Source: Caldisericia bacterium (GTDB lineage: Bacteria; Caldisericota; Caldisericia; UBA6126). From it: DNA of 64,000 bases. Position 1 is the stretch's first letter, and every line of letters starts with the position of its first letter. A model generated the notes under the pieces. The model ran no database searches. It saw nothing but the letters and a program-made list of their open reading frames with translations, and was not told where the DNA came from. Location of the stretch: contig JAGLCW010000094.1 of assembly GCA_023146045.1 (NCBI GenBank), positions 2,579 through 66,578 of the forward strand, given 5' to 3'. The position numbers were made by a program, and so were the translations under genes. Shown here piece after piece: positions 44,267 through 60,746 of this stretch.

Positions 44267-46279
44267 TTAAAGAAATAACGGTATAAATGTTAAAGTTATT
44301 ATTGATATCAGTTTAATCAAAATATTCAATGAAGGACCAGAAGTGTCTTTAAGTGGATCTCCAACAGTATCACCGGTTACGGCTGCAATATGTGCGCTTG
44401 ATCCTTTCCCGCCAAAATGACCTGATTCAATGTACTTTTTTGCGTTATCCCAAGCTCCACCACTATTTGACATAAATATAGCCATCGTAACACCGCTCAC
44501 CAAAACTCCTGCTAATAGCCCGATAACAGACTCTAATCCAACAAGCCAAAAAAGAATGAACGGGAAAATCATTCCAAGCAACGATGGAATAATCATTCCT
44601 TTCAAAGCTCCAGATGTAGAAATATCAATACACTTCTCGTAATCTGGAGATACTAAACCTTTAAGTAGCCCAGGAGTTTCTTTAAACTGTCTTCTAACTT
44701 CTTTAACCATAGCATTTGCCGCTTGAGTGACAGAGTTGATTGTTAAAGATGAGAATAAGTAAGGTAACATTGCTCCAACAAATAAGCCGATGATTACTTG
44801 TGGATTTTCAAGTGTTAAGTTAATATTCATGGTTTGTACTTTGTCAATATGAGTAAAGGTGTTAAAAAGAGTTAATGCTGTTAATGCAGCAGATCCTATA
44901 GAAAAACCTTTGCCTATGGCTGCAGTAGTGTTTCCTATTGAATCCAAAGTATCTGTTCTAACGCGTACAAATTCTGGTTGATGAGTCATTTCAGCAATAC
45001 CACCGGCATTGTCAGAAATTGGGCCATATGCATCAATTGAAATTGTTGCTGCTACTGTTATCAGCATACCAAGTCCAGCAAGAGCTATTCCAAATATATT
45101 TAGTAGTGAAAAAGCAGCATATATTGCTATTACAATAACAACTATCGTAAGGAATGTGCTTTCCATCCCAGTGCTAAAACCACGTAAAATGTTACTTGCA
45201 GTTCCAGCTTTTGAATCTTCAGCAATATTCATAACAGGTTTAGAAGAAGTGTAGTAATCAGTTATTATCCCAATCAATGAACCGCAAATGATACCTATAG
45301 TAACTACGTAAAAGAAAGTAATGTTATGTGTAATCAACTTACTTACTAAAAAAGTAAGGATGATTGCTATAGAGGATGCATAAATCCCAACGTTCTTGAT
45401 AACTTTAACTGGATTCACATTTTTTCTCTTTGAAATGTTTTGAGCAAAGAGTATAACGATGATTGAACTTCCTAGACCTATTGCAAGTAATAAAAAAACG
45501 AAAGAGGTATATTCAGATATATTGTTTCTGAAGAAAAGTCCAATCATGGCAAAACAACCGTAAGCTGCACCAATGTATGATTCGAAGAGATCTGCACCCA
45601 TGCCTGCGACATCTCCAACATTGTCTCCAACATTGTCTGCAATTACCGCAGGATTTCTAGGATCATCTTCAGGAATTTGTGCCTCAGTTTTACCTACGAT
45701 GTCTGCTCCAATATCTGCGGCTTTAGTGTAAATTCCTCCACCAACTCTAGCAAAGAGAGCAACTAGCGAAGCTCCAAGAGAGTAGCCCAATAAAATGTCA
45801 ATTGGTTGTAGGTTTAGAAGTGGTGAAGCAATTAAAAAAGTTAGAGAAATCCCAAGAATTCCAAAACTACATGTTGTGATTCCCATTATTGATCCGCCCG
45901 TGAAAGACACAAACAGTGCGTCATTGAGGCTTTTCTTAGCTGCGGAAGTTGTTTTATAGTTCGCTATTGTTGAAACGTTCATTCCAACCAAACCACTGGC
46001 TATAGAAAAAAGTGAACCAACAAAGAAAACAATAGAGAATTCTATTGAAAAAAGAAAACTGAGTAATACGGTTAAAGCAAGCACAAAAGGGGTTAAAATT
46101 TTATATTGCCTTTTTAAGTAAGCAAAAGCACCTTTTCTGATGATGGTTCCAATTTCTCGTATTGAGCATTCTGAAGGATATTTCAAAATTGCGTGAATAA
46201 AAAAAGATACAATAAAAAAACCCAAAATACTCATTGCTAAAGCAATCAATACACTTACCACAATAAAACCCCTTTGCAT
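44267..46279 (-). CDS. hppA: Membrane-bound proton- or sodium-translocating pyrophosphatase
   Basis: 670 aa polytopic protein with '[21 protein letters not shown]' and other H+-PPase signatures. Confidence 0.9.
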
Positions 46280-46304
46280 GAATTATGCATTATAATTGAC
46301 TTCT

Positions 46305-46334
46305 TTGCTGTCAAGTTTATACTTTAGTTAGAAT
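46305..46334 (+). promoter_or_regulatory. Putative sigma70-type promoter for the tRNA-Val/tRNA-Thr pair
   Basis: TTGCTG -35, 18-nt spacer, TAGAAT -10 ending 12 nt before the tRNA-Val 5' end. Confidence 0.3.
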
Positions 46335-46346
46335 TTTTCAAGGGAC

Positions 46347-46418
<72 letters not shown>

Positions 46419-46430
46419 CGTTATTTATGT

Positions 46431-46503
46431 GCCGATGTAGCTCAGTTGGCAGAGCAGCTGATTCGTAATTAGCAGGTCGTCAGTTCGACTCTGACCATCG
46501 GCT
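46431..46503 (+). tRNA. tRNA-Thr (anticodon CGU)
   Basis: Acceptor GCCGATG/CATCGGC, D-arm AGCTCAGTTGGCAGAGC, anticodon loop TTCGTAA, T-arm GTCAG-TTCGACT-CTGAC. Confidence 0.75.
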
Positions 46504-46520
46504 TGCTTGGAGGGTGACAC

Positions 46521-49500
46521 ATGGATCAGATTCAATTCGGGAAATATATTGCATATGAAGAAATTGGTAGAGGCGGGATGTCTATAGTATATAAAGGTAA
46601 GCATCCAACTTTGAATAAGCCTGTAGCAATTAAAGTTTTATCTGAATTTTTAAGCGTAGACAAAGGATTTATTAAAAGATTCCAAGATGAAGCTCAGATG
46701 TTGTCATCTTTTAGGCATGCCAATATAGTTTCAATTTTAGACTATGGTAAGCAAGGATCAAGCTACTTTATTGTTATGGATTTCATTGAAGGATTTACAG
46801 TTAAGCAAATGATTTTAGAAACTGGAGCTCTTTCATTAAACATTGCAACAAATATTGTAAAAAATGTGGCTACTGCAGTCGCTTATACACACCGAAAGAG
46901 TATAGTACATCAAGACATTAAATCATCAAATATTATGGTTGATTCAAATGGTAGAATATTAGTAACAGATTTCGGACTTTCAAAAAATATTAGCCTTGAA
47001 AATGTTGAAGAAAATCCGTATGAAGTTGCTGGTACACTAGCATATAGCGCTCCAGAGCAACTAGACAGAAAACAGGGGAAAGTTGATGGAAGAACCGACA
47101 TTTATTCCCTAGGTGTTGTTTTTTATGAAATGGTTACTGGCAAGTTACCATTTGCAGACGAAAATACCACTGTTAATATTGCATATCAACATTTAAATGT
47201 GGTTCCAGAATCACCAAAAAAAATTAGACCAGATCTATTATTAAAATCATCTAGTATCATTATGAAAATGCTTAAAAAGAAACAAGATGACCGGTACCAA
47301 ACAATGGATGATTTGCTAAAAGAAATTAACGAACTAGAAGATGTACTGCAGTATTATAAACCTCAAGACGAAGAAGAGGAAGGTTCATTTTTCTCATTTC
47401 AGAATGATGATGAAGAAAATGATGATGAATCTCATGGATACAAACAAAGCGATTCTAAAGAAGAAGTTTCAAACTATGAAGAATCTAATGCTGCCATGGT
47501 CTTTTCAACAGAAAAAAGTGACACTATTGGTAAAAAGCAAATCACAGATATGAAAACTGTAGACAGTAACGTAGATTCATTTCCACCAGTGGATATTTCA
47601 GATCCGTTTATTGGAAGAGAAATAAAACATAGGTATAGAATTCAAAAGTTAATTCTAAGAAGAATTTTAAGTAGATTGTACTATGGTGTTGATTTAGTTA
47701 AAGAGTCTCCCGTAACAATACAGTTACCAAATGAATCAAGGCCTACTTTCAAAACAAGAATTGACAAAGAGATTCAAACAATGAAAAAAATAAACCACCC
47801 TGGGTTTGTTAAATTTATTGATGTTATAGAAGACAATGGTGTGAATTTTGTAATCAGAGAATATGTAGATGGCTATACGATTAAAAATTTACTTAAAAGA
47901 GAAAAATTGTCTATTAAACGTAGCGTAATGATTGCAATGGATGTTTTAGATGCATTATCGTACTTACACAACAAGGGTATCGTTCACCGTGATCTAAACT
48001 CAGACGTAGTTATTGTTCCAAAAGAAGGCAGAACAAGAATAAGCAGCTTAGGTTTTACTAGAGTTGAAGATGCATCGTCGGTCTCTAGTGGAGAATTTCT
48101 TGGTGTTGTCCAATATACAGCACCAGAACAGATAATTCAATCTCATTCAGATGTAAGAACAGATATATACGCAGTTGGAATATTAATGTTTGAAATGTTA
48201 ACTGGTGTGCCGCCTTTTGATTCACCATTGCCAGTTGAAGTTATGGATATGCATTTGAAACGTGTACCAAGATTTCCTGAAGATGCGCAAAAAGGTATTC
48301 CATTGAAACTGCAACGAATTGTTTTAAGGGCACTTTCAAAGCAGCCAGAGCAAAGATTCCCAACTGCTCCTGAGATGGCTGGATCATTAAAGAGTTTTTT
48401 AGAAAGCTTTACAGGTAAAGAAGTAAAAATTGATGCCATTACTGGCGACATGAATGAGAATGAAAAACAAACTGGAATAGAAAAAGATACAGAAAATAGA
48501 GTAAATGTTCTAAGTGACACAGGTATTTATAGGAATATTCAAACTAGCAGAAATACAAAAAAACAGCAATTCTCAATAAAAAAGCCGTTAAGTAGATCAG
48601 AAAAAAAAGAAAAAGACAACAAAGTAAATATAAGAAAAATAATTAACAACGACCTGCAAACAGAAACAAAAAAGAGAGATATAGGAATTTCCAAAGAGAA
48701 TGAAGTATACGAAGCAACTCAGAAAAAAAAGAAAACAGAAAAGAAGAACCAGATAAGCTCTCCAAAATTTGAAGTTAAAGCTCCAAAGAACAAGAAAGTT
48801 GTTAGAAGCAATGGAAAAAATAAATCTAACAAAAAGAAAAGCAATCCTTTACTGATAATAGCTTTATTGGTTGCAGCATTTTGCACTATCTTTGCGATTT
48901 ATTATTTCAAAAAGCCTGCTACAGGCGTCAACGAAGAAACTCACGCAAACAACACTAACCGAATAGAATGGGTATCGCCAAATAGTTCAGCTGAAACAAC
49001 ACTAATCCCGATGATACCTCTCGAAATAGAATTAAAGCAACTTGATTATTCCGAAGGAAATTATTTTGACCTAGTGGATTTACCAAAGGAAATTGAATAT
49101 AGTGTTTCTTTACCAGACAGCAAAGGGACTTTTGAGATTATGATGTATACATCAAATCAAATTCGAAGCAGCACGGTGGCTTTTTCGCTAATCTGTATGG
49201 ATCCTGAAGATAAAATTCTAAGTGAAACGAAATATGTTATTGCATATAACTATAAAGCAATTAAACAAATAGTTTTGAATTATTCTAATGCCACTTACAG
49301 TGTTAACAAGCATGAGGAGAAAACAATTGAACCAAATGCGGCGTTAAACGATGAAAGCGTATATATCCCAATAAGGTTTTTAGTAGATAGCCTCGGAGGT
49401 AAAATCGAGTATGATACCGAGACAGAGTGTATAACTATTACAGATATTGACAGCCATGAGTATAAATTTTATCTGACCACACAACAGTATTCAGTTGACG

Positions 49501-49658
49501 GAAATCTAGAACGAGAATACAATCCTATTTTAGAAATAAACGATACCGCATATCTGGCAGCTGATTTTCTAAGTTTAAAAATGAATTTTAAAATCACTCT
49601 AGAATATAATGCCGAGAAGCAATTCCTTATTAGTTTGTTAAAAAGTAAAGAAGATTAA
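46521..49658 (+). CDS. Receptor-type Ser/Thr protein kinase with tandem kinase and pseudokinase domains, a TM helix and an extracellular domain ending in a CuAO-N-like module
   Basis: Domain 1 has 'IGRGGMSIVYKG', 'AIK', 'HQDIKSSN', 'DFG' and 'APE'. Domain 2 (about res 370-620) keeps HRD and APE but lacks the Gly loop, VAIK Lys and catalytic Asn, and has LGF for DFG. K-rich linker, TM 'LLIIALLVAAFCTIFAIYYF', and C-terminal 'ESVYIPIRFLVDSLGGKIEYDTETECITI'. RBS GGAGGG before the ATG. Confidence 0.8.
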   Translation: MDQIQFGKYIAYEEIGRGGMSIVYKGKHPTLNKPVAIKVLSEFLSVDKGFIKRFQDEAQMLSSFRHANIVSILDYGKQGSSYFIVMDFIEGFTVKQMILETGALSLNIATNIVKNVATAVAYTHRKSIVHQDIKSSNIMVDSNGRILVTDFGLSKNISLENVEENPYEVAGTLAYSAPEQLDRKQGKVDGRTDIYSLGVVFYEMVTGKLPFADENTTVNIAYQHLNVVPESPKKIRPDLLLKSSSIIMKMLKKKQDDRYQTMDDLLKEINELEDVLQYYKPQDEEEEGSFFSFQNDDEENDDESHGYKQSDSKEEVSNYEESNAAMVFSTEKSDTIGKKQITDMKTVDSNVDSFPPVDISDPFIGREIKHRYRIQKLILRRILSRLYYGVDLVKESPVTIQLPNESRPTFKTRIDKEIQTMKKINHPGFVKFIDVIEDNGVNFVIREYVDGYTIKNLLKREKLSIKRSVMIAMDVLDALSYLHNKGIVHRDLNSDVVIVPKEGRTRISSLGFTRVEDASSVSSGEFLGVVQYTAPEQIIQSHSDVRTDIYAVGILMFEMLTGVPPFDSPLPVEVMDMHLKRVPRFPEDAQKGIPLKLQRIVLRALSKQPEQRFPTAPEMAGSLKSFLESFTGKEVKIDAITGDMNENEKQTGIEKDTENRVNVLSDTGIYRNIQTSRNTKKQQFSIKKPLSRSEKKEKDNKVNIRKIINNDLQTETKKRDIGISKENEVYEATQKKKKTEKKNQISSPKFEVKAPKNKKVVRSNGKNKSNKKKSNPLLIIALLVAAFCTIFAIYYFKKPATGVNEETHANNTNRIEWVSPNSSAETTLIPMIPLEIELKQLDYSEGNYFDLVDLPKEIEYSVSLPDSKGTFEIMMYTSNQIRSSTVAFSLICMDPEDKILSETKYVIAYNYKAIKQIVLNYSNATYSVNKHEEKTIEPNAALNDESVYIPIRFLVDSLGGKIEYDTETECITITDIDSHEYKFYLTTQQYSVDGNLEREYNPILEINDTAYLAADFLSLKMNFKITLEYNAEKQFLISLLKSKED

Positions 49659-49663
49659 AAAGA

Positions 49664-50851
49664 ATGGGAAGAAAGTTAAGCACACAAAATCAGTTAACTA
49701 TTCTATTTGCTTTAGAAAAAAACGAAGAATACGAGGAGATCCGAAAAGACTTTGAGGATAATACTCTATTTCGCATAGAAGATTTTTTATCAGATGGGTT
49801 TTTGCTAGATGAGAAAATAAGACTATTGTCACCCGATATTTTAATATTGGACTATCACTTAAAAAACATAAATATGATAAATTTTCTTGAAGAAGCTATT
49901 ATTAAATACCCATCAACAGCGGTACTTCTAATAATTGACTCAAGTGATTTAATTGACATAAGGAAAATTGTCAAAACAGCAACAAGAAATGTTATAACAC
50001 GACCTTTAGACCATAAAATTCTTACTCAACTAGCTATGAACGCTTTTATATCTAGCTTTAAAGATAGAAAAATCCAAAATTTTGGCTTAAACTCCAAGAA
50101 AATGGGTAAACTGTTATGTTTCACTTCTGCAAAAGGGGGAGTTGGTAAATCTTTACTATCTGTCAATCTTGCCTTAGTGTTAGCGAATCTAACGGAATCG
50201 TACAAAGTCTTGCTTATGGACCTAGGTCTTCCTTACGGAGATCAAAGAGCTATCACGAACATCAGCCCAGAAAAAACTCAGTCTACTTTAGATTTATTAT
50301 TGATTGCAGATGAGTTATCCCCAGAGAGAATAAGTAGTATTGTACAAAGAAGTGAGATTTATCCAAATTTTGATATTGTTGTTTCGCCTGGTTCAGCAGA
50401 TAGAATGGCAGAAATTGATGAGGCAAAATTACGTAAAACAATAAGGGTTTTAAAATTGATATATGATTTCATTATTATTGATATGGATCCTGGAGTGGAC
50501 GATATCACAAAAATAATACTTGAACAGTCAGATAAAATATTTATTGTTTTTACTCCAGAAATCCCATCTTTATTTAGATTAGTAAATTACTTAAAAGAGT
50601 TCCAGTGGTTAAAAATTAGCAGTCCACCAGAGATAATATACAACAAAAGACCTAAAAAGGTAGATCAAAAAATTAACACAATACTTCAGAAAATTCTTCC
50701 GTACCCCATATTTTGTAGCATAAGAGAAGATAATAAAATAGCTATTTCTTCGCTTAACGACATGTATCCAGCTGTTACCAAAAAAGGTGTTTTAAGAAAA
50801 GATATCATGGATTTTGCAGAGAAGATCCTTGAATGGGAGAGCAATAACTAA
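49664..50851 (+). CDS. cpaE: Tad pilus assembly ATPase-like protein CpaE/TadZ (degenerate receiver domain plus ParA/MinD-type ATPase)
   Basis: N-terminal receiver-like domain. 'AKGGVGKSLLSVNLA' deviant Walker A. Starts 5 nt after the kinase stop. Confidence 0.75.
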   Translation: MGRKLSTQNQLTILFALEKNEEYEEIRKDFEDNTLFRIEDFLSDGFLLDEKIRLLSPDILILDYHLKNINMINFLEEAIIKYPSTAVLLIIDSSDLIDIRKIVKTATRNVITRPLDHKILTQLAMNAFISSFKDRKIQNFGLNSKKMGKLLCFTSAKGGVGKSLLSVNLALVLANLTESYKVLLMDLGLPYGDQRAITNISPEKTQSTLDLLLIADELSPERISSIVQRSEIYPNFDIVVSPGSADRMAEIDEAKLRKTIRVLKLIYDFIIIDMDPGVDDITKIILEQSDKIFIVFTPEIPSLFRLVNYLKEFQWLKISSPPEIIYNKRPKKVDQKINTILQKILPYPIFCSIREDNKIAISSLNDMYPAVTKKGVLRKDIMDFAEKILEWESNN

Positions 50852-52221
50852 TGCCAAACTCAGATAATGCTGAAGATTTTTATAAAACAATTAGGAACAA
50901 TGTTTTTGAATCAATAACTCCTGCAGATATATTACGCGAGAAGCAAGAAAATCCTGATCAGATAAAAGGGAAAATTCGTAACATCTGTCTCCAAACTATT
51001 CAAGCATCAAGAAGAGTTTTACCGATAGAATACCAAGAACAAATAATCAACCGTTTGTTGAATGAAATATTTGGGTTTGGGCATATTCAACCATTGTTAG
51101 AAGATGAAAGCATTTCAGAGATTATGATAAATGCTCCAGATCAGGTATACATAGAACGAGACGGCAAGCTATTCAAATCTGATGTTATATTTGAATCAAA
51201 GGCCCAAATTATACAAATTATTGATAGAATTGTTAGCCCTCTTGGTAGGAGAATAGACGAATCTAGCCCGTTGGTTGACGCCAGACTGCCAGATGGTAGT
51301 CGAGTTAATGCTGTTATTCCACCAATAGCTGTAAAAAGCCCATCATTAACAATAAGAAAGTTTAAAGATACAATCTTAAGCTACGATAGTCTTATTGATT
51401 ACGGCTCAATGACAAAAAAAATGGCTACGTTTATTGATAGAATTGTTAAGGCTCGAGCAAATATAATTATCTCAGGCGGCACTGGATCTGGCAAAACAAC
51501 GTTGCTAAATGTTTGCTCTACATCTATCCCAAGGTTTGAGAGAATTATCACAGTTGAAGATTCAATAGAGTTAAAATTAAAGCAGCCGCATGTTGTTTCA
51601 CTAGAAGCAAGACCTCCAAACATTGAAGGCGAAGGGCGGGTTACTATTAAAGATCTTGTCATAAACTGCCTAAGAATGAGGCCAGATAGAATCATTGTTG
51701 GTGAAGTCAGAGGGAAAGAAGCATTTGATATGCTTCAAGCTATGAATACAGGGCATGATGGCTCTTTGACTACAGTTCATGCAAATACACCGAAAGATGT
51801 TATATCTAGATTAACTTCAATGGTATACATGGCTGGGATGGATATGCCTGTACATATTTTGCAAGAAATGATATTTAGTGCAATAGAATGCGTAATACAG
51901 ACTGCTCGTTTCCCAGATGGATCAAGGAGAATTACAACAATATCTGAATTGGCATCTTTTGAAAACAAACAAGTTGTTTTAAATCCAATATTCAATTTTG
52001 AAATTGACGGCAGAGACGAAAATGGAAAAATTAAGGGACATTACGCAGAAGGGTCTTTTGGCAAGAGAATTAGAAATAAAATTGAAGCTACAGAAATTGC
52101 TAAACCGAAAAAAAATAAGAAAGAAGCTTCAAAAGAAAACTCGATACAGGAAAATAAAAGTGTATCAATGCAGAAGTTGATGAGAAAGCTTGGAGTAACG
52201 GATGAAAACAGGGAACAGTAG
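50851..52221 (+). CDS. cpaF: Tad pilus secretion ATPase CpaF/TadA (type II/IV secretion NTPase)
   Basis: 'IIISGGTGSGKTTLLN' Walker A; Asp box; Walker B; His box 'TGHDGSLTTVHAN'. Confidence 0.9.
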   Translation: MPNSDNAEDFYKTIRNNVFESITPADILREKQENPDQIKGKIRNICLQTIQASRRVLPIEYQEQIINRLLNEIFGFGHIQPLLEDESISEIMINAPDQVYIERDGKLFKSDVIFESKAQIIQIIDRIVSPLGRRIDESSPLVDARLPDGSRVNAVIPPIAVKSPSLTIRKFKDTILSYDSLIDYGSMTKKMATFIDRIVKARANIIISGGTGSGKTTLLNVCSTSIPRFERIITVEDSIELKLKQPHVVSLEARPPNIEGEGRVTIKDLVINCLRMRPDRIIVGEVRGKEAFDMLQAMNTGHDGSLTTVHANTPKDVISRLTSMVYMAGMDMPVHILQEMIFSAIECVIQTARFPDGSRRITTISELASFENKQVVLNPIFNFEIDGRDENGKIKGHYAEGSFGKRIRNKIEATEIAKPKKNKKEASKENSIQENKSVSMQKLMRKLGVTDENREQ

Positions 52222-53041
52222 TAGACAAAATAAAAAAGATGATTTGTTTAGTCCTTATTATCAATCGAAAAAGAGAAAAAATACCATAAATGAGGGTAAT
52301 AAAAACGTTAGCGTAAAAGAAGGATCGTTGTCAGATATTTTTCAAACAACAATCAGTACTTTTGCATTGGCATTAATGATAGTTGGCGGGTTAGCATGTG
52401 TATTCGTAGTGTTTTATATTATGTATCACAATATCATAATGGGTATATTGTTTTCTGGAATTGCTGCTGCAGGGTTTTTGATGTTTTTGCAAATCAAAAA
52501 AACAGAAAAGGAAAATAAGTTTGTGAATCAACTACCAGATACATTGTCTGCTGTTGCAAATTCTTTAAAAGCAGGATTTTCACTTGATCAAGCTTTTGAG
52601 TTTGTATCTATTTCTATGCCAGAGCCAACTAAAAGTGAATTCTCTAGAATACATTTGAATTATAGGGTTGGATTAACTCTTTCTACCTCTTTAGAAGATT
52701 TGCTTAAAAAGTATCCTAATCCTGAAGTAAAACTATTTGTATCTTCAATGGTTTTACAGGAACAAATAGGCGGTAATGTTGTTCCTTTTCTTGGAGAATT
52801 GAAAAATATTCTGAAGGAGCGAGTAAAACTTAAAGGAAGTATTGCAGTTGGAACGGCTCAAACAAGGTTATCATCTGCAATTGTCGCTCTTCTTCCTTAT
52901 GTAATGTTAATGCTTCTTGTTTCGTCTGGTTATGATTCTTTAACGAATACATTAAAAGGCATTCTATTGCTTATATTCGCCATACTTATGCAGGCTACTG
53001 GATTGTTTATTAATGATAAAATAACAAAGGTTGATGTGTAA
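52202..53041 (+). CDS. tadB: Tad pilus assembly inner-membrane protein TadB (T2SS-F domain)
   Basis: GspF/T2SSF-like domain with TM helices ('LQEQIGGNVVPFLGELKNILKER'), located between cpaF and tadC. Confidence 0.7.
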   Translation: MKTGNSSRQNKKDDLFSPYYQSKKRKNTINEGNKNVSVKEGSLSDIFQTTISTFALALMIVGGLACVFVVFYIMYHNIIMGILFSGIAAAGFLMFLQIKKTEKENKFVNQLPDTLSAVANSLKAGFSLDQAFEFVSISMPEPTKSEFSRIHLNYRVGLTLSTSLEDLLKKYPNPEVKLFVSSMVLQEQIGGNVVPFLGELKNILKERVKLKGSIAVGTAQTRLSSAIVALLPYVMLMLLVSSGYDSLTNTLKGILLLIFAILMQATGLFINDKITKVDV

Positions 53042-54843
53042 TGAATTCTATAGAATATACATTAATTGTTGTAATATTTGTCATGTTGATTTTTTACTTA
53101 CTTGTGCGTCTTTTATATGCAAATAAAGATAGGAAAAAACGCTCAACGGATTTATTATTCGGCATGGAAGATAGGAAAAGGAAACGAAAGAAATCTCCAA
53201 ATTTTATAATACAACTTTTGAATAATCTTTCAAAGCCTTTCTATAAAATCTTTCCAGTTTTTGGAAAAATTGCTACAAAAAAAACTGAAGAAGTAAATAA
53301 GGCTACGAGCGATAAACTAGAAAAAGCTGGAAGACCGTTTGATTTTGATACCGATGACTTCAATAAGCTGAAGCTATTCTGTGCAGTCACATTTCTTTTT
53401 TTAATGTTTATAGTTGCAACGGGCAACGAAAACCCAAATTACTATCTTTATGCTGTTATTTCTGGAGTAGTGGGGTTTTTTTATCCAGATCTTTTTATTA
53501 TGGGATTGTTACAAACTAGAGCAAAAAAGATATCCCTTGAACTACCAAATGCTATGGATTTTATTGCTCTTTGTCTAGCTGCAGGAATGAATTTCCAGTT
53601 AGCTGTAGAAGAGTATTCAAAAAGAAATTCAACAATTTTAGCAGATGAATTTGATATATTCATCAATGACGTTCAGGTAGGAGTTGGTAGAGTTGATGCT
53701 TTTCAACATCTTTTAGATAGAAATGGTTCTCCAGAGTTTAGGAGTTTTTTAGTATCAATTATTCAAGGGGAACGATTGGGGACTCCATTAAGACCCGTAA
53801 TAATGAGTCAAGCAGAAGAATTACGCGGTAAAAGAAAAATTAATGTAGAAAAAGAAATAGCAACTGCCCCAACAAAAATGTTGTTCCCTCTTGTTATGTT
53901 CATCTTGCCAGCTATGCTTATGATAATACTCGGATCGGTGCTTTTACCAAAACAAGAAAAAAAAGAGCTTGGAATGGGATTAACACTAACAAAATTTATT
54001 TACTATCAAGTAACTCCAGGCGTTAATGTATTCGTTAATACAGAAGAGTATCCTGTTTACGAAATCCAGATAAGCGAAGATTACTTTACGAAAGAAAAAG
54101 GATTAGAATACCAAGAAGGAGCAATCGAAACTCCTTCTCAACTTAAATACGCGGAAGAATTTTTTCAAACAAGTAGCTCAAAGATAGCTTGGTTCGCTAG
54201 ACTAGACTTGCCTGAGGGAGAACTAGTAAAATATCATATAGTAGTTGTTGCAAACAACGGTCAAAAAAATAACAATTTTATTGCAACAAAGTATGTTACT
54301 TTTTTCATTGAAGAGGCTAATGAAGACGGGATACTCTACTCACAAAATAGTAAAAAAATTGCAATTAGAGGAAGGGTAACTCCAAATATTAAAGTCAAAG
54401 CAATGCTAGATAATAAGGAATTAATTGGTGTAATGAATGAAGAAACTGGAGAATTCTATTTTGAGAACATATCTGTTTCAAATAAAACAAACCCAATTCA
54501 GTTTACACTAGAAGATTCATTAGGGCTTAGCATTATTGTTGAAAAGAAAATTGAGTACACCGGGATATTTGTAAATGCTGCATTTTCACAAGAAACTACA
54601 ATTAACCCTGTAGGCAACTTAACCGGAACAGCAACGGCGAATTCATTTATAAAAATGTATAAAGTTGAGAACGGGAAAATGATATATCTGCAAACCATAG
54701 AAGTAGATCAAACAGGGATTATTAATGAAATGATACCAATTGAGCCAGGGGTAAACCAATTTCAGATTTATGCAACTTTTGAAGCAGAACAAGAAAAGAG
54801 CCCAAAGAGAAAATTATCAATTACAAGGAGTTTAATTCCATGA
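53041..54843 (+). CDS. tadC: TadC (T2SS-F domain) with an Ig-like C-terminal extension of about 290 aa
   Basis: The N-terminal ~310 aa form a TadC-like T2SSF membrane domain. Residues ~310-600 are a soluble beta-rich extension not typical of TadC. Confidence 0.7.
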   Translation: MNSIEYTLIVVIFVMLIFYLLVRLLYANKDRKKRSTDLLFGMEDRKRKRKKSPNFIIQLLNNLSKPFYKIFPVFGKIATKKTEEVNKATSDKLEKAGRPFDFDTDDFNKLKLFCAVTFLFLMFIVATGNENPNYYLYAVISGVVGFFYPDLFIMGLLQTRAKKISLELPNAMDFIALCLAAGMNFQLAVEEYSKRNSTILADEFDIFINDVQVGVGRVDAFQHLLDRNGSPEFRSFLVSIIQGERLGTPLRPVIMSQAEELRGKRKINVEKEIATAPTKMLFPLVMFILPAMLMIILGSVLLPKQEKKELGMGLTLTKFIYYQVTPGVNVFVNTEEYPVYEIQISEDYFTKEKGLEYQEGAIETPSQLKYAEEFFQTSSSKIAWFARLDLPEGELVKYHIVVVANNGQKNNNFIATKYVTFFIEEANEDGILYSQNSKKIAIRGRVTPNIKVKAMLDNKELIGVMNEETGEFYFENISVSNKTNPIQFTLEDSLGLSIIVEKKIEYTGIFVNAAFSQETTINPVGNLTGTATANSFIKMYKVENGKMIYLQTIEVDQTGIINEMIPIEPGVNQFQIYATFEAEQEKSPKRKLSITRSLIP

Positions 54844-55397
54844 TGTATCAATTGCCATTAGTCTATGTACTAATAGTGTTTAGTATTGTAGTGGTAGTCT
54901 GTATTGTTTCTGTAATAACAGATATTAAAACCAGGAAGATATTGAATGCCGTAACGTTGCCAGCTTTTTTACTAGGAATTACGATTAATCCTTTGTTTTT
55001 TAAATTAAGCGGTTTGAATCCATTAAATGGACTCTTAAATTCACTATATGGTTTGATAATAGGATTTGGATTTTTCTTTGTTTTCTATATTGTTGGAAAA
55101 GGTAAAAACATGGGAGCAGGAGATGTAAAATTAATGGGAGCTATAGGGTCATTAGTCGGATGGCAAATGACTGTCAATTCAATAATTTTCACTTCATTTG
55201 TAGGTCTAATTGTTGCTATAATTTTATTTTTTCCTTTGCTTTATACACTTATTTTTTCTGGGAATGCAGCAAGTTTAAAAGATTATGGAAAAATGACTGT
55301 TCCGTATGGTGTCTCAATTGGCATTGGAACTTTGATTGCAGTTGGCTTTCGTTTATTGTACATTGCAGAAATACTAGAGGTACCACTGTTTATATGA
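54840..55397 (+). CDS. tadV: Prepilin peptidase (A24 family, CpaA/TadV-type)
   Basis: Small polytopic membrane protein with the catalytic Asp context ('ITDIKTRKI' ... 'GAGDVKLMGAIG') typical of TadV/CpaA. Confidence 0.75.
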   Translation: MMYQLPLVYVLIVFSIVVVVCIVSVITDIKTRKILNAVTLPAFLLGITINPLFFKLSGLNPLNGLLNSLYGLIIGFGFFFVFYIVGKGKNMGAGDVKLMGAIGSLVGWQMTVNSIIFTSFVGLIVAIILFFPLLYTLIFSGNAASLKDYGKMTVPYGVSIGIGTLIAVGFRLLYIAEILEVPLFI

Positions 55398-55807
55398 TTA
55401 GTAAAAAGTATAAAAACGAAAAAGGCTCAACAACATTAGAATTTGCATTGCTATTTCCTTTTTCGTTTTTACTAACTTTTTTTGCATTAGTGATAATTTT
55501 TAGGTCAGCTGACGCTTTGCTCATTACTTATGAAACAAACAGAGTTGCTAGGGCTATGGCAATGAACGGCAGCGTTTCAACTCAGTTAACAAATCAAGTG
55601 CAAGGCATGCCAATGCTTAATCAATATCAAACAAGAGTTGTTACTGCAAAAAACACAGATGCACCATTGATTAAAGCGCAGGTTCAGATGAGCAATGGGC
55701 TAATTCCAAAATACTTCCTTACTCTTACCTTAGAAGATGATGCAGTTGATCAAATCGATCAATACTCTGTAATAAGAGAAAGAGCAGTGTATGTCGATGG
55801 ATTCTAA
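55394..55807 (+). CDS. tadE: TadE-like pseudopilin
   Basis: 'EKGSTTLEFALLFPFSFLLTFFALVII' N-terminus (TadE/Flp-type processed leader followed by a hydrophobic helix). The true start ATG at 55394 overlaps the tadV stop (ATGA). Confidence 0.6.
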   Translation: MISKKYKNEKGSTTLEFALLFPFSFLLTFFALVIIFRSADALLITYETNRVARAMAMNGSVSTQLTNQVQGMPMLNQYQTRVVTAKNTDAPLIKAQVQMSNGLIPKYFLTLTLEDDAVDQIDQYSVIRERAVYVDGF

Positions 55808-56237
55808 AACTACATTGGCAAATAGATTTATACACGATGAGACTGGTCAATCAATAATAGAAACAGCATTTTTGCTATCTTTGGTGTTGTTGATAATAAT
55901 GGTCTTCATTTCTTTATCATACGGCTATTATTACAGAACAAATATTCAACATTTAGCTACAAATGTTGCTACCGTGTTAAGTCTTTCTGAAATCGAAAAC
56001 AATAGTGCAAATACTACTCAAAGGATCAATGATATTGTAAGTTTTTATGAGAGTAATCTAATATTCCCCATATACACAAGCGATTCGGATAGATTTACAA
56101 TTTCATGGGAAGAAGAAGTACATGATTTGTACTACACGGTTTATTCTGTAAGAGTTGACTACATAGGACCAAATTTTCCGTTAACAGACCCAATAAACAT
56201 TTCTGTGACCTCAACATCATTAAAGGTTGAAAAATGA
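55791..56237 (+). CDS. TadE/TadF-like pseudopilin
   Basis: 'ETGQSIIETAFLLSLVLLIIMVFISL' N-terminus of the TadE type. Confidence 0.55.
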   Translation: MSMDSKTTLANRFIHDETGQSIIETAFLLSLVLLIIMVFISLSYGYYYRTNIQHLATNVATVLSLSEIENNSANTTQRINDIVSFYESNLIFPIYTSDSDRFTISWEEEVHDLYYTVYSVRVDYIGPNFPLTDPINISVTSTSLKVEK

Positions 56238-56719
56238 AGAAGTACAAAATAAACAAAGAAAATGGAGATATTGTTTCTCAAAGAGCAGTTATTCTTAGAA
56301 ATCCTTTATTGAAAATGAAAGGACTTCTGGGAAGAAAAGCAATTGGCGAAGAAGAGGCTTATATTTTTTATCATGCTTCATCTATACATACTTATGGAAT
56401 GAAGTTTGACATAGATGTAGTTTTTCTGGACAAGAATAAATATGTTAAGAAAATTATTTCTTCAATGGCTCCAGGAAGAATTGTAAATTGCAATTCCTAC
56501 GCAACAATTGAGTTTCCAAAGAATAGAATGAAAGAGAAGAATGTTATTGAAGGATCTAAGCTTGAATGGTTTGTATCTGATGAATCTGGTCAAGTGATTC
56601 TAGAGTACGCATTAATTCTAGCAGTTTTTGTTATTGCAATAATTGGCGTGGCAATCCCATTAGTGCAAACTACGAAACTTTTTATGCAGCATATGATTAA
56701 CTATCTTGTTGACATTTAA
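56234..56719 (+). CDS. DUF192-family protein whose in-frame 3' end encodes an Flp/Fap-pilin-like segment
   Basis: Residues 1-~113 are DUF192-like ('FYHASSIHTYGMKFDIDVVFLD...ATIEFPKN'). The C-terminal 'SDESGQVILEYALILAVFVIAIIGVAIPLV' matches the Flp prepilin G/xxxxEY processing motif plus a hydrophobic helix. Confidence 0.55.
   Translation: MKKYKINKENGDIVSQRAVILRNPLLKMKGLLGRKAIGEEEAYIFYHASSIHTYGMKFDIDVVFLDKNKYVKKIISSMAPGRIVNCNSYATIEFPKNRMKEKNVIEGSKLEWFVSDESGQVILEYALILAVFVIAIIGVAIPLVQTTKLFMQHMINYLVDI
56528..56719 (+). CDS. flp: Candidate Flp/Fap prepilin (63 aa) initiated from an internal in-frame ATG of the DUF192 ORF
   Basis: MKEKNVIEGSKLEWFVSDESG|QVILEYALILAVFVIAIIGVAIPLVQ... has a leader, a G|xxxxEY cleavage motif and a hydrophobic stretch like Flp pilins. 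It ends the tad operon, where the pilin gene is expected. Confidence 0.4.
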   Translation: MKEKNVIEGSKLEWFVSDESGQVILEYALILAVFVIAIIGVAIPLVQTTKLFMQHMINYLVDI

Positions 56720-57818
56720 TGTATTTTTTGTGAACATACTCAGAGCTCATAGAGTATAATAAGGCGGAGTAGTTTAAGCGGAATGAAATGGTATCACCTA
56801 CATTTAGGTTTGTACTTGACTCTTCAACATCTAATAGAAGATGATCAGAGGATGCTCCAAGTATTGATAGCCCATTCAATGTTGGAGTTAGCCCAAAAAT
56901 ATCCGTATCCAGTCTTCCAATGTTCACGATTGCTCTTTTTCGCAATCCTTTATCTTCAAAAAAAGGTGTTTCGCCAAATGCATTTTTTGTTAAAGGTTTT
57001 TTCGGTAATGTAGGTTTTATCTTTAATTCAATTATCTCACCAGTAAGAGTAAAACAATCCTGGTAGCAATCACCAACGCTGTTTTTATTTATTGCATCTA
57101 CGCCCATTACAATTGTTTCTCCAACACGCACGTGGTTTATAAAACTTGGCAAAGAGCTATTCTCTAAAAGAGGCATTAAATTAGATCCTCCACCAGAGAT
57201 GTACTCGGGATGCTTGTGAAAATATTTTTTAAAGTATTCAGCAGCAGCCTGTAATGTTTTTAAATTATCCACTGTTGGTATTAAACCTGCAAAGCATGTG
57301 GCATTACATCCTACACCAACAAAATCTAAAGCCTTAAGTTTAGTACAAAGTTCTAAAAATCTTGGGAAATCATCTATCATTATTCCCTCTCTTAAATCCC
57401 CAATCTCAACCATTAAAATAACCTTGTGTGTTGTTTTTGTTTTTATGCAATAGTCGTTAAGTGCAGAAAGCACGTTGATTTCAGTATTCAAACTGATATC
57501 ACAAATATCTACTACTTGATCTATGTTTTGTAACGAAGGACTTCTTATTAGCATGAACTCAGCATTGATTGAGTGATTTTTCATTCTAACAATATCAGAA
57601 ACTCTAGAGTCAGCCAAAGAACTGGTTATCTCGGCATACTTGCTGCAGATTACTGGATCACCCATGATGACTTTTGTTACAGGGGTTAGTTTGACATTAC
57701 TTTTAACACAAAGCGAGTTCACAACAGATAGATTGTGTGTTAATTTCTCAATGTTAATGCTAAGGATAGGCGTATTCATAAATGCTCCTAATTTATAGAT
57801 TGATGGAGTGTTTTGCAA
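56697..57818 (-). CDS. PLP-dependent amino-acid racemase (alanine racemase N-terminal-domain family, ornithine racemase/YhfX-like)
   Basis: Fold-type III PLP barrel ('VKLTPVTKVIMGDP', the N-terminal Lys region) with a C-terminal beta domain. Similar to the predicted amino acid racemase family. Confidence 0.65.
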   Translation of the reverse strand: MQNTPSIYKLGAFMNTPILSINIEKLTHNLSVVNSLCVKSNVKLTPVTKVIMGDPVICSKYAEITSSLADSRVSDIVRMKNHSINAEFMLIRSPSLQNIDQVVDICDISLNTEINVLSALNDYCIKTKTTHKVILMVEIGDLREGIMIDDFPRFLELCTKLKALDFVGVGCNATCFAGLIPTVDNLKTLQAAAEYFKKYFHKHPEYISGGGSNLMPLLENSSLPSFINHVRVGETIVMGVDAINKNSVGDCYQDCFTLTGEIIELKIKPTLPKKPLTKNAFGETPFFEDKGLRKRAIVNIGRLDTDIFGLTPTLNGLSILGASSDHLLLDVEESSTNLNVGDTISFRLNYSALLYSMSSEYVHKKYIKCQQDS

Positions 57819-58695: not shown

Positions 58696-59712
58696 CTAAA
58701 TAGAAATTTCTTTTTCTGCGATTGTTTTCATTAACTGTGCCGTGTGACGTACATCAAATACATCAACAACTTCACTGGCTGAATGCAGGTATCTTGTAGG
58801 GATTGAGATACAAGTTGTTATCACACCAGATTTGGTTGTTTGAATTACTCCAGCATTTGTTCCTCCAAATGCAAGAACCTCAAATTGATATGGGATATGG
58901 CTTTCTTCGGCAATGTTTTGTATCCATTGATTAAGCCTATGATCTGCTATCATGCTTCTGTCTTGGATTTTTATTGCTGGCCCGCTTCCTAATTTCATAG
59001 GTATACGTTTTGCGCCTTTTGGTGTATCTCTAAATCCTGTAGCTGTTACATCTAAAGCAATTCCATAATCTGGTTCAATTCCATATGCTGCTGCTTTGCT
59101 GCCAACTAAACCAACTTCTTCCTGTGTAGCAAAAACAAAATATAAGTCATGGTGGTTAGATTTTAATGTTTGAATGACGTTGATTAGTATTGCACAAGCT
59201 ATTCTATCGTCCATAGCCTTTGACATGTACCTGTTACCCATATCAACAAAGGAAGAATCATATGTAGCAGTTTCACCAATTCTAATTTTAGAAAGTGCTT
59301 CGTTGCGTGTTCTAGCACCGATGTCAACAAACAGCGTATCAAAACTAACTTCTTTTCTGTCAGAGGCTTGCTTCATTAGAATTTCTGATTCATACCCAAT
59401 AGTTCCTTTTGTTCCATACTCAAATCTAATTCTTTGATGTGGTAAATTTACAGGCAAATGACCACCCAATGGTTCTATGTGAATAAAACCATTATCATCT
59501 ATATAAGTGGCTACAAATCCAATTTCATCCGCATGAGCATCAAAAAGAAGTTTTTTCCCATTACCTTTTTTATGAGCAATCAAGTTACCCAATGAATCAA
59601 TGTGGTAATCATCAACATAGGGTTTAATGTACTCTAAAATAATTTTCTGAATATTTTCCTCTCTCCCGCTTGGAGATGAAGTTTCAACAAGTCTTTTAAT
59701 AATATCTTGCAT
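58696..59712 (-). CDS. M42 family (TET/FrvX-type) aminopeptidase, paralog 1
   Basis: Dinuclear metallopeptidase M42 signatures: 'HADEIGF', 'DDRIACA', 'TQEEVGLVG', C-terminal 'HSASE'. Confidence 0.8.
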   Translation of the reverse strand: MQDIIKRLVETSSPSGREENIQKIILEYIKPYVDDYHIDSLGNLIAHKKGNGKKLLFDAHADEIGFVATYIDDNGFIHIEPLGGHLPVNLPHQRIRFEYGTKGTIGYESEILMKQASDRKEVSFDTLFVDIGARTRNEALSKIRIGETATYDSSFVDMGNRYMSKAMDDRIACAILINVIQTLKSNHHDLYFVFATQEEVGLVGSKAAAYGIEPDYGIALDVTATGFRDTPKGAKRIPMKLGSGPAIKIQDRSMIADHRLNQWIQNIAEESHIPYQFEVLAFGGTNAGVIQTTKSGVITTCISIPTRYLHSASEVVDVFDVRHTAQLMKTIAEKEISI

Positions 59713-59723
59713 TGTCTCCTCCT

Positions 59724-60746
59724 TTATTGATTAAAAAAATTCTGGCTATTATTAAAAATACCCATAGCTAGTTTTTGTGTATTAATATAATCTTCAGGAT
59801 GCATTACGCTGGTAGGTGAATGTATGTATCTAACAGGCACAGAAACAGAACCAACAAAAGTACCTTTTTCAGCTTTTGCAATTCTTGTAGCATCGTTCCC
59901 ACCAGAGATTTTTTCTTTTACCTGGAATGGGATTTGTTTTTGTTCTGCAATATTCTTTAAAAAAGTAAAAACTTTTTTCCCAAAAACTAATCCGTTGTGT
60001 GCGATGCTTATCGCAGGTCCTTTTCCCAATTGAGTTGTATACCTATTGCGTTCCACTAAAGGGATGTCACATGCAGTAGTTCCTTCAAGTACAAGAGCAA
60101 AGTCTGGTTTGATATGGTAAGATGCCGTTATGCTACCCCTTAGACCTACTTCTTCTTGAGTGGCAAAGACAAACCATGTGTCAAATTCTGGAGTAATATT
60201 TTCTTTCAATATATCAATCATTATTGAGCAACCAACGCGATCGTCAAATGCTTTCCCTTCCCAAAGATCTCCAAGTTGAGAAAATTTAGTTATGAATGTT
60301 ATGTAATCTCCAATTTCAATTTTACCATTTAACTCTGTATCAGAATTAGCTCCACAGTCAATGTAAAGAGAATCCATTTTTATAGGGCTCAGTACAGACT
60401 TTTGCAAGTGTATTGGTTGTATTCCAATGACCCCGCTTAGTGTTTCTTTCCCAAGAATTTTTACGTTTGTTGCTGGAAAAATAGATGGTAAAATTCCACC
60501 AACGGATTGAAATTTAATGGTTCCATTTTTCTCAATTTTTTCTACCATTAAACCAACTTCATCCATATGTGCGAGAAACATAATTTGTTTCGAGCAGTTG
60601 CGTCCACGCTTTTTAACCATCAAATTCCCAAGGCAATCTACTTTTATTTCATCAACATAATCTTTTATTTCATTTCGTATGAAATTTCTTACTTCACCTT
60701 CATTACCACTAACACCATATAGATTGCATAATTCTTTTAAGACCAT
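59724..60746 (-). CDS. M42 family (TET/FrvX-type) aminopeptidase, paralog 2
   Basis: 'HMDEVGL', 'DDRVGCS', 'TQEEVGLRG', 'HSPTS'. Confidence 0.8.
   Translation of the reverse strand: MVLKELCNLYGVSGNEGEVRNFIRNEIKDYVDEIKVDCLGNLMVKKRGRNCSKQIMFLAHMDEVGLMVEKIEKNGTIKFQSVGGILPSIFPATNVKILGKETLSGVIGIQPIHLQKSVLSPIKMDSLYIDCGANSDTELNGKIEIGDYITFITKFSQLGDLWEGKAFDDRVGCSIMIDILKENITPEFDTWFVFATQEEVGLRGSITASYHIKPDFALVLEGTTACDIPLVERNRYTTQLGKGPAISIAHNGLVFGKKVFTFLKNIAEQKQIPFQVKEKISGGNDATRIAKAEKGTFVGSVSVPVRYIHSPTSVMHPEDYINTQKLAMGIFNNSQNFFNQ

Follow-up and report, generated by a model that had tools for sequence, protein, structure and literature searches.

Does a receptor Ser/Thr kinase that is encoded directly ahead of the genes for a Tad (Flp) pilus control the assembly of that pilus? 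The question is raised by a 64-kb stretch of DNA (contig JAGLCW010000094.1, hereafter the window; ~34% G+C) from a metagenome-assembled genome (MAG) of the class Caldisericia. Here nine closely spaced open reading frames (ORFs) on the + strand (46521-56719) encode a kinase with a tandem pseudokinase and then the parts of a Tad machine, in the order kinase-tadZ-tadA-tadB-tadC-tadV-tadE-tadE-DUF192::flp. Many bacteria use Tad pili for adhesion and predation, for building biofilms and for sensing surfaces; the known controls on pilus assembly are transcriptional regulators, two-component systems, cyclic di-GMP and polar-localization factors acting via TadZ/CpaE. No paper that we found connects a Ser/Thr kinase with a tad locus, in line with an initial annotation of this DNA, which knew of no such architecture in characterized tad loci; its ORFs were recovered exactly, and its gene and domain calls agree with the Pfam assignments. 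The locus is a real, conserved and lineage-specific Tad variant with an embedded receptor kinase-pseudokinase, and control of the pilus by phosphorylation is plausible.

Conservation of the kinase at the head of the tad operon

The same kinase heads the homologous loci of related genomes. It is adjacent to tadZ in ~16 of ~17 related loci, with gaps of 1-14 nt: the kinase stands directly before tadZ in the window and in L001, L003, L004, L006, L007, L008 (the GTDB representative of Caldisericota), L090, L094/L096, L098, L099 and L101, and fragments at contig ends (L088, L089, L092, L093) also show it in this place. When the genomic contexts of six kinase relatives were compared, five had the kinase followed by tadZ-tadA-tadB-tadC and usually by tadV-tadE-tadE-DUF192; the sixth is a paralog, P0024, which is taken up below. 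The link persists where the downstream flanks are different (L003, L006, L008). Sampling from TadZ or TadC rather than from the kinase gave the same result: a TadZ-seeded scan of metagenomes returned 8 loci, and in all 7 with upstream DNA tadZ is preceded by the kinase or by the C-terminal end of it, while TadC-seeded look-ups (L096, L098, L099, L100, L101) were all consistent with the presence of the kinase.

Outside the class the arrangement was not seen. A search with TadA reached tad loci in different phyla (44-71% identity), and none of the 79 tad loci of other phyla obtained in this way has a kinase upstream of tadZ. Any ORF with a Pkinase domain within 10 kb was present in 5 of the 79 (L019, L033, L048, L062, L072); these kinases are single-domain and variably positioned, and we judge them to be background in the kinase-rich Acidobacteriota and Chloroflexota. 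In one of them, the Chloroflexota contig L033 (649-4646), a single-domain Ser/Thr kinase begins ~300 nt past a TadA-like ATPase, and in the Anaerolineae tad locus L019 (13221-14561) an FHA-kinase fusion lies ~8.6 kb downstream of tadA; these two are possibly independent kinase-Tad links, or mere background of a kinase-rich phylum.

One Caldisericia-type tad operon, L097 (6462-13740), has neither the kinase nor the upstream tRNAs that accompany it elsewhere. Compared with L098, its TadA, TadB, TadC and TadV are 65%, 76%, 71% and 68% identical and its TadZ only 24%; between far more distant lineages TadZ identity is 51-58%. The TadZ of L097 (422 aa) is non-orthologous and has a stronger Response_reg match. 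Low identity of TadZ beside conserved TadA, TadB, TadC and TadV indicates joint loss or replacement of the kinase and its TadZ. The 5' module of tRNAs, kinase and TadZ thus appears to have been replaced as a block, a pattern that would fit a functional pair of kinase and TadZ.

The packing of the genes points to co-expression. The kinase stop codon lies 5 nt before the tadZ ATG and the remaining junctions are overlaps of 1-20 nt, all on one strand, as had been described. A terminator and promoter scan of 45800-57300 found no terminator-like site on the + strand of 46521-56719, and hence none between the kinase and cpaE (tadZ). Promoter-like matches in the same scan were about as frequent as chance predicts (48 against 46), and the sole match retained was one conserved in 6 loci, which lies upstream of a tRNA gene. 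The kinase, which the initial annotation placed at the head of the operon, is indeed its first protein-coding gene, but it is preceded by tRNA-Val (CAC; 46347..46419, +; ARAGORN, Rfam 66.7 bits), by tRNA-Thr (CGT; 46431..46503, +; ARAGORN and Rfam) and by the retained promoter, a sigma-70-type TTGACT-16-TATACT found by consensus scan at 46296..46323 (+), 24 nt 5' of tRNA-Val. The -35 TTGAC and the -10 TATA(C/A)T, in the form TTGAC-17-TATA(C/A)T, are unchanged in the 6 loci despite the divergence of the surrounding DNA. Between the end of tRNA-Thr and the kinase ATG there are 17 nt (17-30 nt across 6 loci), a spacer that contains only a GGAGGG Shine-Dalgarno motif. The tRNA pair is found at the equivalent place in L001, L004, L007, L008 and L096, and the layout of promoter, two tRNAs and short spacer recurs in L001, L004, L007, L008, L090 and L094/L096.

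Judging from this spacing and from the conservation of the promoter, the pilus operon is probably headed by a tRNA-mRNA co-transcript that starts at ~46296. Because all genes lie on one strand with gaps of at most 5 nt or overlaps, terminator-like sites are absent and the spacer between tRNA-Thr and the ATG is too short for a promoter, the kinase and the tad genes probably form a single transcription unit that extends from ~46296 through DUF192::flp. The thrU-tyrU-glyT-thrT-tufB operon of E. coli is a known mRNA operon led by tRNAs. It shares with the Caldisericia locus, where co-transcription is a prediction, the placement of tRNAs and a protein gene under one promoter with a short spacer; the genes downstream in Caldisericia are those of a ~10-kb pilus operon. 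The idea that the locus is a genomic island, a tRNA-adjacent tad "colonization island", was discarded, as GC content is flat, an integrase is absent and both the locus and the genes around it keep their synteny throughout the class.

Kinase and pseudokinase domains of the receptor

The first protein-coding gene (46521..49658, +) encodes a receptor Hanks-type kinase of 1045 aa with a tandem pseudokinase; two stretches of it match Pfam Pkinase (E 1.4e-84). An NCBI entry, "MAG: protein kinase [Caldisericia bacterium]", matches the protein with 100% identity. The architecture of the kinase is shared by ~23 full-length relatives (40-57% identical), the named members of the cluster all being Caldisericia MAGs. 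Domain 1 (residues 5-270; 46533..47330, +) aligns to S. aureus PknB (4eqm, E 7e-46) and contains a GxGxxS Gly-rich loop, the VAIK Lys38, the alphaC Glu57, H-Q-D132, Lys134, Asn137, D150-F-G, Thr172 and an APE motif. Across the family K38, H130, K134, N137, D150-F151-G152, T172 and E179 are invariant in 24/24 members and D132 is present in 23/24. Since every catalytic residue is kept in 23 of the 24 members, selection on catalysis is indicated, and domain 1 is predicted to be catalytically intact. In the window kinase HQD stands in place of HRD, so domain 1 is classed, by this motif, as a non-RD kinase in the subclade of the window kinase. Its activation loop is highly variable in the 23-sequence alignment of the family.

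Domain 2 (residues 368-630; 47622..48410, +) aligns to M. tuberculosis PknB (E 2e-37) and is degenerate. It reads VTIQ for VAIK, HRDLNSDVV for HRDLKPxNI and SLG for DFG, and the Gly loop is absent; the Asp of HRD is retained. In all 24 members the catalytic-loop Lys is replaced by Asn, the Asn by Val, Thr or Ile, and the Asp of DFG by Ser, Thr, Phe or Asn. The VAIK Lys is replaced by Gln in 20 members, the other 4 having a gap at this position in the automatic alignment. By the usual criteria, applied to these motifs, domain 2 is a pseudokinase.

The activation loop of domain 2, TR(V/I)EDASS(V/I)SSGEFLG(V/I)VQYT(A/S)PEQI, is near-invariant in 23 aligned sequences, the paralog included, with conservative changes at 5 positions. 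Its S522/S523 align with the phosphorylation sites T171/T173 of PknB, and the segment is disordered in the AlphaFold2 model. Mean pairwise identity is 0.67 for the pseudokinase and 0.65 for the kinase domain, with 90 and 85 invariant positions, respectively; being as conserved as the kinase domain, the pseudokinase is evidently under selection. We infer that its loop serves as a phospho-acceptor, a docking motif, or both.

The AlphaFold2 model of the kinase, built on the 23-sequence alignment, predicted both kinase-fold domains confidently, and residues 283-360 and a Lys-rich linker at ~635-775 are disordered in it. A single transmembrane helix follows at residues 776-795 (48846..48905, +), as defined by the AlphaFold2 secondary structure and its per-residue confidence (pLDDT). 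The Lys-rich segment ahead of this helix predicts, by the positive-inside rule, that the kinase domains are inside the cell and the C-terminus outside. The ectodomain (48993..49655, +; Pfam and AlphaFold2) consists of an immunoglobulin (Ig)-like beta-sandwich at residues ~825-932 and a Cu_amine_oxidN1 alpha/beta domain at 935-1040, the latter matched by Pfam over residues 935-1028 (E 6e-9). Two proposals of the initial annotation have thus held up: the pairing of an intact kinase with a pseudokinase, as domain 1 aligned to PknB keeps the catalytic Lys and Asp and domain 2 is degenerate, and the receptor topology of Lys-rich linker, membrane helix and extracellular CuAO-N-like domain, to which Pfam and the structure prediction both point.

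In its full length the ectodomain was confined to this kinase family in a sequence search of 1.84 billion representatives. It evolves fast, with 22-41% pairwise identity and 7 of 246 positions invariant, and is the least conserved part of the kinase. Pairs of Cu_amine_oxidN1 domains end four other large multi-domain proteins of the window, predicted surface proteins with Ig-like, cohesin, and PQQ or NHL beta-propeller domains (5626-7941, -; 8081-12763, +; 37622-40189, +; 61791-63890, -). The domain looks like the standard module by which this lineage anchors its surface proteins, and the kinase ectodomain has one copy. Because the module is shared with the organism's large surface proteins, the kinase ectodomain is likely a sensor that binds the cell envelope or surface, in a role that may be comparable to that of PASTA domains.

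By sequence, both kinase-fold domains are closest to the kinases that carry PASTA domains (PknB, Stk1, StkP and PrkC; E 1e-37 to 1e-46), which share the receptor topology with a sensor facing the envelope. The Caldisericia kinase differs from them in its Ig-like and Cu_amine_oxidN1 ectodomain, its second, degenerate domain and its location in a pilus operon rather than among PP2C or division genes. The top NCBIfam model is that of the Stk1 PASTA-kinase family (NF033483, score 521.8), aligned over model positions 7-321 of 563, and its cut-off is exceeded only because the scores of the two kinase domains sum. Pfam matched no PASTA repeat in the window kinase, which is not a member of the PASTA family.

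The tandem arrangement itself is less exceptional than was first supposed. The initial annotation had called kinase-pseudokinase tandems rare in bacteria, but 94 of the 120 best database matches have at least two kinase-like domains, many with one of them degenerate; these multi-domain matches come mostly from Anaerolineae/Chloroflexota, Planctomycetota and other metagenomic bacteria. Of the best 120 matches, 96 fall outside the kinase family, and these comprise 46 active-active, 28 single active-domain, 12 pseudo-active, 4 active-pseudo and 6 other layouts. A recent atlas of bacterial kinomes does not discuss tandem layouts. Among eukaryotic proteins, the JAKs and the plant tandem kinases, such as WTK1/Yr15 (PMC6170490), likewise combine active and degenerate kinase domains in one chain, with a conserved degenerate domain implying a regulatory or scaffold role. 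In the Caldisericia protein the kinase precedes the pseudokinase, whereas the JAKs have the opposite order, and compared with the eukaryotic tandem kinases it has an independent bacterial origin, two PknB-like domains and a membrane anchor on the C-terminal side.

The Tad machine and its putative DUF192-fused pilin

The genes downstream of the kinase encode a derived Tad machine. TadZ/CpaE (49664..50851, +) has Pfam matches to AAA_31/ParA/CbiA at residues 149-365 and a weak match to Response_reg at 41-122 (E 0.008); its ATPase motif KGGVGKS is intact, and the receiver-like domain keeps Asp63, with the acidic pair and the Lys degenerate. The best PDB match of TadZ is 3ea0 (E 1.7e-21), and E. 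rectale TadZ was not among its PDB matches. The secretion ATPase TadA/CpaF (50851..52221, +; Pfam T2SSE, 4e-63) is followed by the platform proteins TadB (52202..53041, +; Pfam T2SSF) and TadC (53041..54843, +; 600 aa, Pfam T2SSF at residues 173-297). The prepilin peptidase TadV (54840..55397, +; 185 aa) matches Pfam Peptidase_A24 only (8e-19), and the methyltransferase domain is absent. Next come two pseudopilins. The first (55394..55807, +) is TadE/TadF-like, with the class-III signal motif G/STTLEF, a weak TadE match (E 0.042) and orthologs in related loci; the second (55791..56237, +) is TadE-like (Pfam TadE, 6.7e-5) with the motif G/QSIIET.

TadC is unusually large. In its AlphaFold2 model (pLDDT 80) the helical T2SSF part is followed by three C-terminal Ig-like domains (~310-600, ~290 residues) that are predicted to be extracytoplasmic, and the top Foldseek matches of the model in the PDB are three-Ig tandem modules. 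All matches to this ~600-aa form of TadC but one, which is distant, belong to the same close family, the named members of which are Caldisericia MAGs. In L007 (16353-18422) several small ORFs stand in place of an unbroken tadC, which may reflect a pseudogene or frameshifts in long-read data.

Neither the secretin RcpA/CpaC nor RcpB/C or TadD domains were found in the ORFs of the window or in the Pfam-annotated loci L001-L007 and L096-L101, and the Tad system has no TadG. On account of these absences we class this Caldisericia-specific system, by gene content, as a secretin-less, monoderm-type Tad/Flp (type IVc) machine. This agrees with the discussion of Caldiserica among the lineages that have lost the outer membrane (10.1101/2021.05.31.446380). 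The description of the operon as complete therefore stands for a secretin-less monoderm type, with the reservation that there is no separate flp gene. Known monoderm Tad loci, such as tad2003 of Bifidobacterium breve and the TadZ system of Eubacterium rectale, share with it a TadZ of receiver-like domain and ParA ATPase, TadA, TadB, TadC, a methylase-less TadV, TadE/F pseudopilins and the G/XXXXEY Flp motif, and are without secretin, RcpB/C, TadD and TadG. The Caldisericia locus differs from them in four respects: the receptor kinase and pseudokinase that come first, the putative Flp pilin fused behind DUF192, the three extra Ig domains of TadC and the two leading tRNAs.

The last gene (56234..56719, +) encodes a protein of 161 aa in which DUF192 (residues 1-112; Pfam) is fused in frame to a putative Flp-type pilin. 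The ORF had been labeled DUF192/Flp, and the Flp motif is present; the label was incomplete in that this is a conserved in-frame fusion with the Flp-like segment as its C-terminus. The predicted TadV site is G119/Q120 within the motif ESG/QVILEY, followed by a hydrophobic stretch, and would release a mature pilin of 42 aa (nt 56591-56716). A six-frame motif scan of the window picked up nothing beyond the pair of pseudopilins and the C-terminal end of the DUF192 ORF; the latter is the sole Flp-like motif, and no stand-alone flp gene was found. The Flp segment scores 16.9 bits against Pfam Flp_Fap, below the cut-off of 32.2, and is 67% identical over 30 aa to a stand-alone Flp of L004 that passes this cut-off. 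As a word-based homolog search with the fusion returned 3 proteins only, it was replaced by a hidden Markov model scan of the collected loci, in which the fusion (W..ESG/QxxxE[YF]ALI and hydrophobic core) proved to be kept in 7 other Caldisericia loci. An internal start at Met102 that would yield a separate Flp was rejected as the conserved state, as this Met is absent from the other loci. One subclade has, besides the fusion, an extra stand-alone flp of 55 aa between tadC and tadV (L004, 18134-18301).

Among the 79 tad loci of other phyla, ~28, from Acidobacteriota, Dehalococcoidia and further groups, have an unfused DUF192 ORF, as a rule 2-3 kb 3' of tadA, and a DUF192 gene has been noted beside a tad operon in Bulleidia (PMC12786226). 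DUF192 thus looks like a widespread, little-discussed Tad accessory, and in Caldisericia the fusion could be a prepilin with a folded "leader" of 119 residues.

Phosphorylation as a proposed switch for pilus assembly

Gene order and conservation together suggest protein phosphorylation as the switch of pilus assembly. We consider it fairly probable, from the comparison of loci and sequences, that the Tad operon of Caldisericia took in a receptor kinase as its first protein-coding gene and that this kinase gates pilus assembly post-translationally. An envelope or surface cue would act on the ectodomain and activate domain 1, which would phosphorylate the near-invariant cluster of Ser residues in the pseudokinase's activation loop and possibly the cytoplasmic parts of the Tad machine. 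The phosphorylated pseudokinase could then be a docking and output platform that licenses assembly of TadZ, TadA and TadBC, with TadZ as the likeliest partner of the kinase. Invariant Ser/Thr residues in TadZ, TadA, TadB and TadC give candidate sites, for example S52-P-N in the N-terminal loop of TadC, and offer no basis for choosing a substrate. The outcome would be post-translational gating of pilus assembly, as by PpkA for type VI secretion.

A fuller form of this proposal is tentative and, taken as a whole, improbable. It holds that the kinase is a dedicated, machine-bound switch, in which the ectodomain, perhaps with the Ig domains of TadC, would sense surface or envelope contact; domain 1 would phosphorylate the loop; the receiver-like domain of the co-inherited TadZ would read the phosphorylated loop instead of being phosphorylated on Asp and would recruit TadA; and TadV would remove the 119-residue cytoplasmic DUF192 leader from the pilin. 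If true, it would represent the first Tad pilus gated by a Hanks kinase and a new prepilin architecture.

Precedents for kinases at envelope machines are known. In Pseudomonas aeruginosa, the threonine-phosphorylation pathway PpkA-PppA-Fha1 gates assembly of the H1 type VI secretion system (T6SS). A PpkA-TssL-Fha pathway of threonine phosphorylation in Agrobacterium is cited in PMC11217815. In the PpkA pathways, as in the Caldisericia locus, the genes of an envelope nanomachine include one for a Hanks kinase that spans the membrane and has a sensor domain on the outside; in the Caldisericia locus an FHA reader and PP2C were not found, the machine is a type IV filament machine and a tandem pseudokinase is present, so that the locus may work alike and is not a member of this group. 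Type VII secretion systems (T7SS) contain kinase-fold parts as well, the EssB/YukC pseudokinase of T7SSb and the membrane Ser/Thr kinases TscD/TsdD of T7SSc/d (PMC11217815; PMC9600267). Compared at the level of the shared Pkinase fold only, these are likewise single-pass membrane proteins with a cytoplasmic kinase fold and an outside domain that form core or regulatory parts of a secretion machine in monoderm bacteria; the Caldisericia kinase has active and dead folds in one chain and belongs to a Tad machine. Kinases and pseudokinases in secretion-machine clusters are therefore already known, and the association with a type IV filament is new.

If the kinase does gate the pilus, it would provide a new regulatory input for Tad pili and extend kinase-gated envelope machines from T6SS and T7SS to the type IV filament superfamily. 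The protein would also be a compact bacterial model of a pseudokinase with an invariant activation loop beside an active kinase, and the DUF192-fused Flp-like pilin, the TadC Ig domains and the tRNA-led operon mark the Tad machine of this deep-branching and little-studied lineage as strongly derived.

Several observations weigh against gating of the pilus by the kinase. First, no FHA protein or PP2C/PPM phosphatase is present among the window ORFs of at least 150 aa, nor did Pfam annotation reveal one in the related loci L001-L007 and L096-L101, which leaves no candidate phospho-reader there. Second, the Tad genes of L097 persist without the kinase, which is thus not obligatory for the Tad machine, and the co-replacement seen there is a single event that one recombination at the 5' end could explain. 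Third, the flanking housekeeping genes are also syntenic in most loci, so the conserved adjacency is partly plain vertical inheritance. Fourth, the kinase paralog P0024 (L005, 2635-5286) is not adjacent to tad genes. Lastly, the kinase gene contains at its 3' end a promoter-like site, TTGACG-17-TACAAT (10/12 matches; 49495-49523), which is ~140 nt ahead of the tadZ ATG and could drive expression of tadZ and the tad genes without the kinase; this site belongs to the chance-rate class of matches in AT-rich DNA. P0024 has a degenerate domain 1 (HLN for HRD, alphaC Glu replaced by His) and keeps the EDASSVSSG loop in domain 2; a Cu_amine_oxidN1 protein of 560 aa is encoded next to it on the other strand.

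The rival that survives best, though we think it unlikely, is that the kinase is a general envelope or growth kinase in the role of PknB, Stk1 or PrkC, with many substrates and no dedicated function in the pilus, the tad neighborhood being shared by descent. The best relatives of both domains and the top NCBIfam model are as such a kinase would have them, no dedicated FHA or phosphatase partner is encoded, a kinase-less tad operon exists in L097, and the flanks (H+-PPase, PFK, transketolase, Ala_racemase_N, BrkB and M42 peptidases) are conserved in L001, L004, L007, L096, L098 and L099. However, PASTA domains are absent and the ectodomain is unique to this family, and the close spacing to tadZ is kept in all examined junction loci, including those with rearranged downstream flanks. 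The joint disappearance of the kinase and the orthologous TadZ in L097 also speaks against a general role, as does the loss of catalytic residues from domain 1 in the one paralog unlinked to tad.

It is a good deal less probable that the kinase serves the Tad machine chiefly as a structural subunit, a membrane scaffold of pseudokinase and ectodomain like EssB/YukC, possibly pairing with the TadC Ig domains across the wall, with phosphotransfer of minor importance. Conservation of the pseudokinase equals or exceeds that of the active domain and its loop is near-invariant, both the kinase and TadC have lineage-specific extracytoplasmic Ig-like domains, and the T7SS offers the precedent of a pseudokinase scaffold (PMC11217815; PMC9600267). 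Retention of all catalytic residues of domain 1 in 23 of 24 members is at odds with such a role; the poor conservation of the ectodomain would be unusual for a fixed structural interface, and the other genes of the machine persist in L097 without the kinase. That the adjacency is fortuitous or an artifact of annotation or assembly, as a single MAG window and an apparently split kinase in L101 (436 aa and 642 aa; GCA_035396865.1) might have suggested, is effectively refuted by synteny, as the arrangement recurs in ~16 loci from independent samples and assemblers, the L101 split was rejected because a run of N at 4592-4693 marks a scaffold gap, and the protein matches its deposited NCBI counterpart in full.

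At its distal end the pilus operon meets a convergent gene. The 3' end of the DUF192-Flp gene overlaps by 23 nt (56697-56719) with the 3' end of a gene of the Ala_racemase_N family (56697-57818, -), and no terminator was predicted between the two. Farther downstream lie three tandem paralogous genes for M42 glutamyl-aminopeptidases (58696-61789, -), a layout that is kept in L097-L100.

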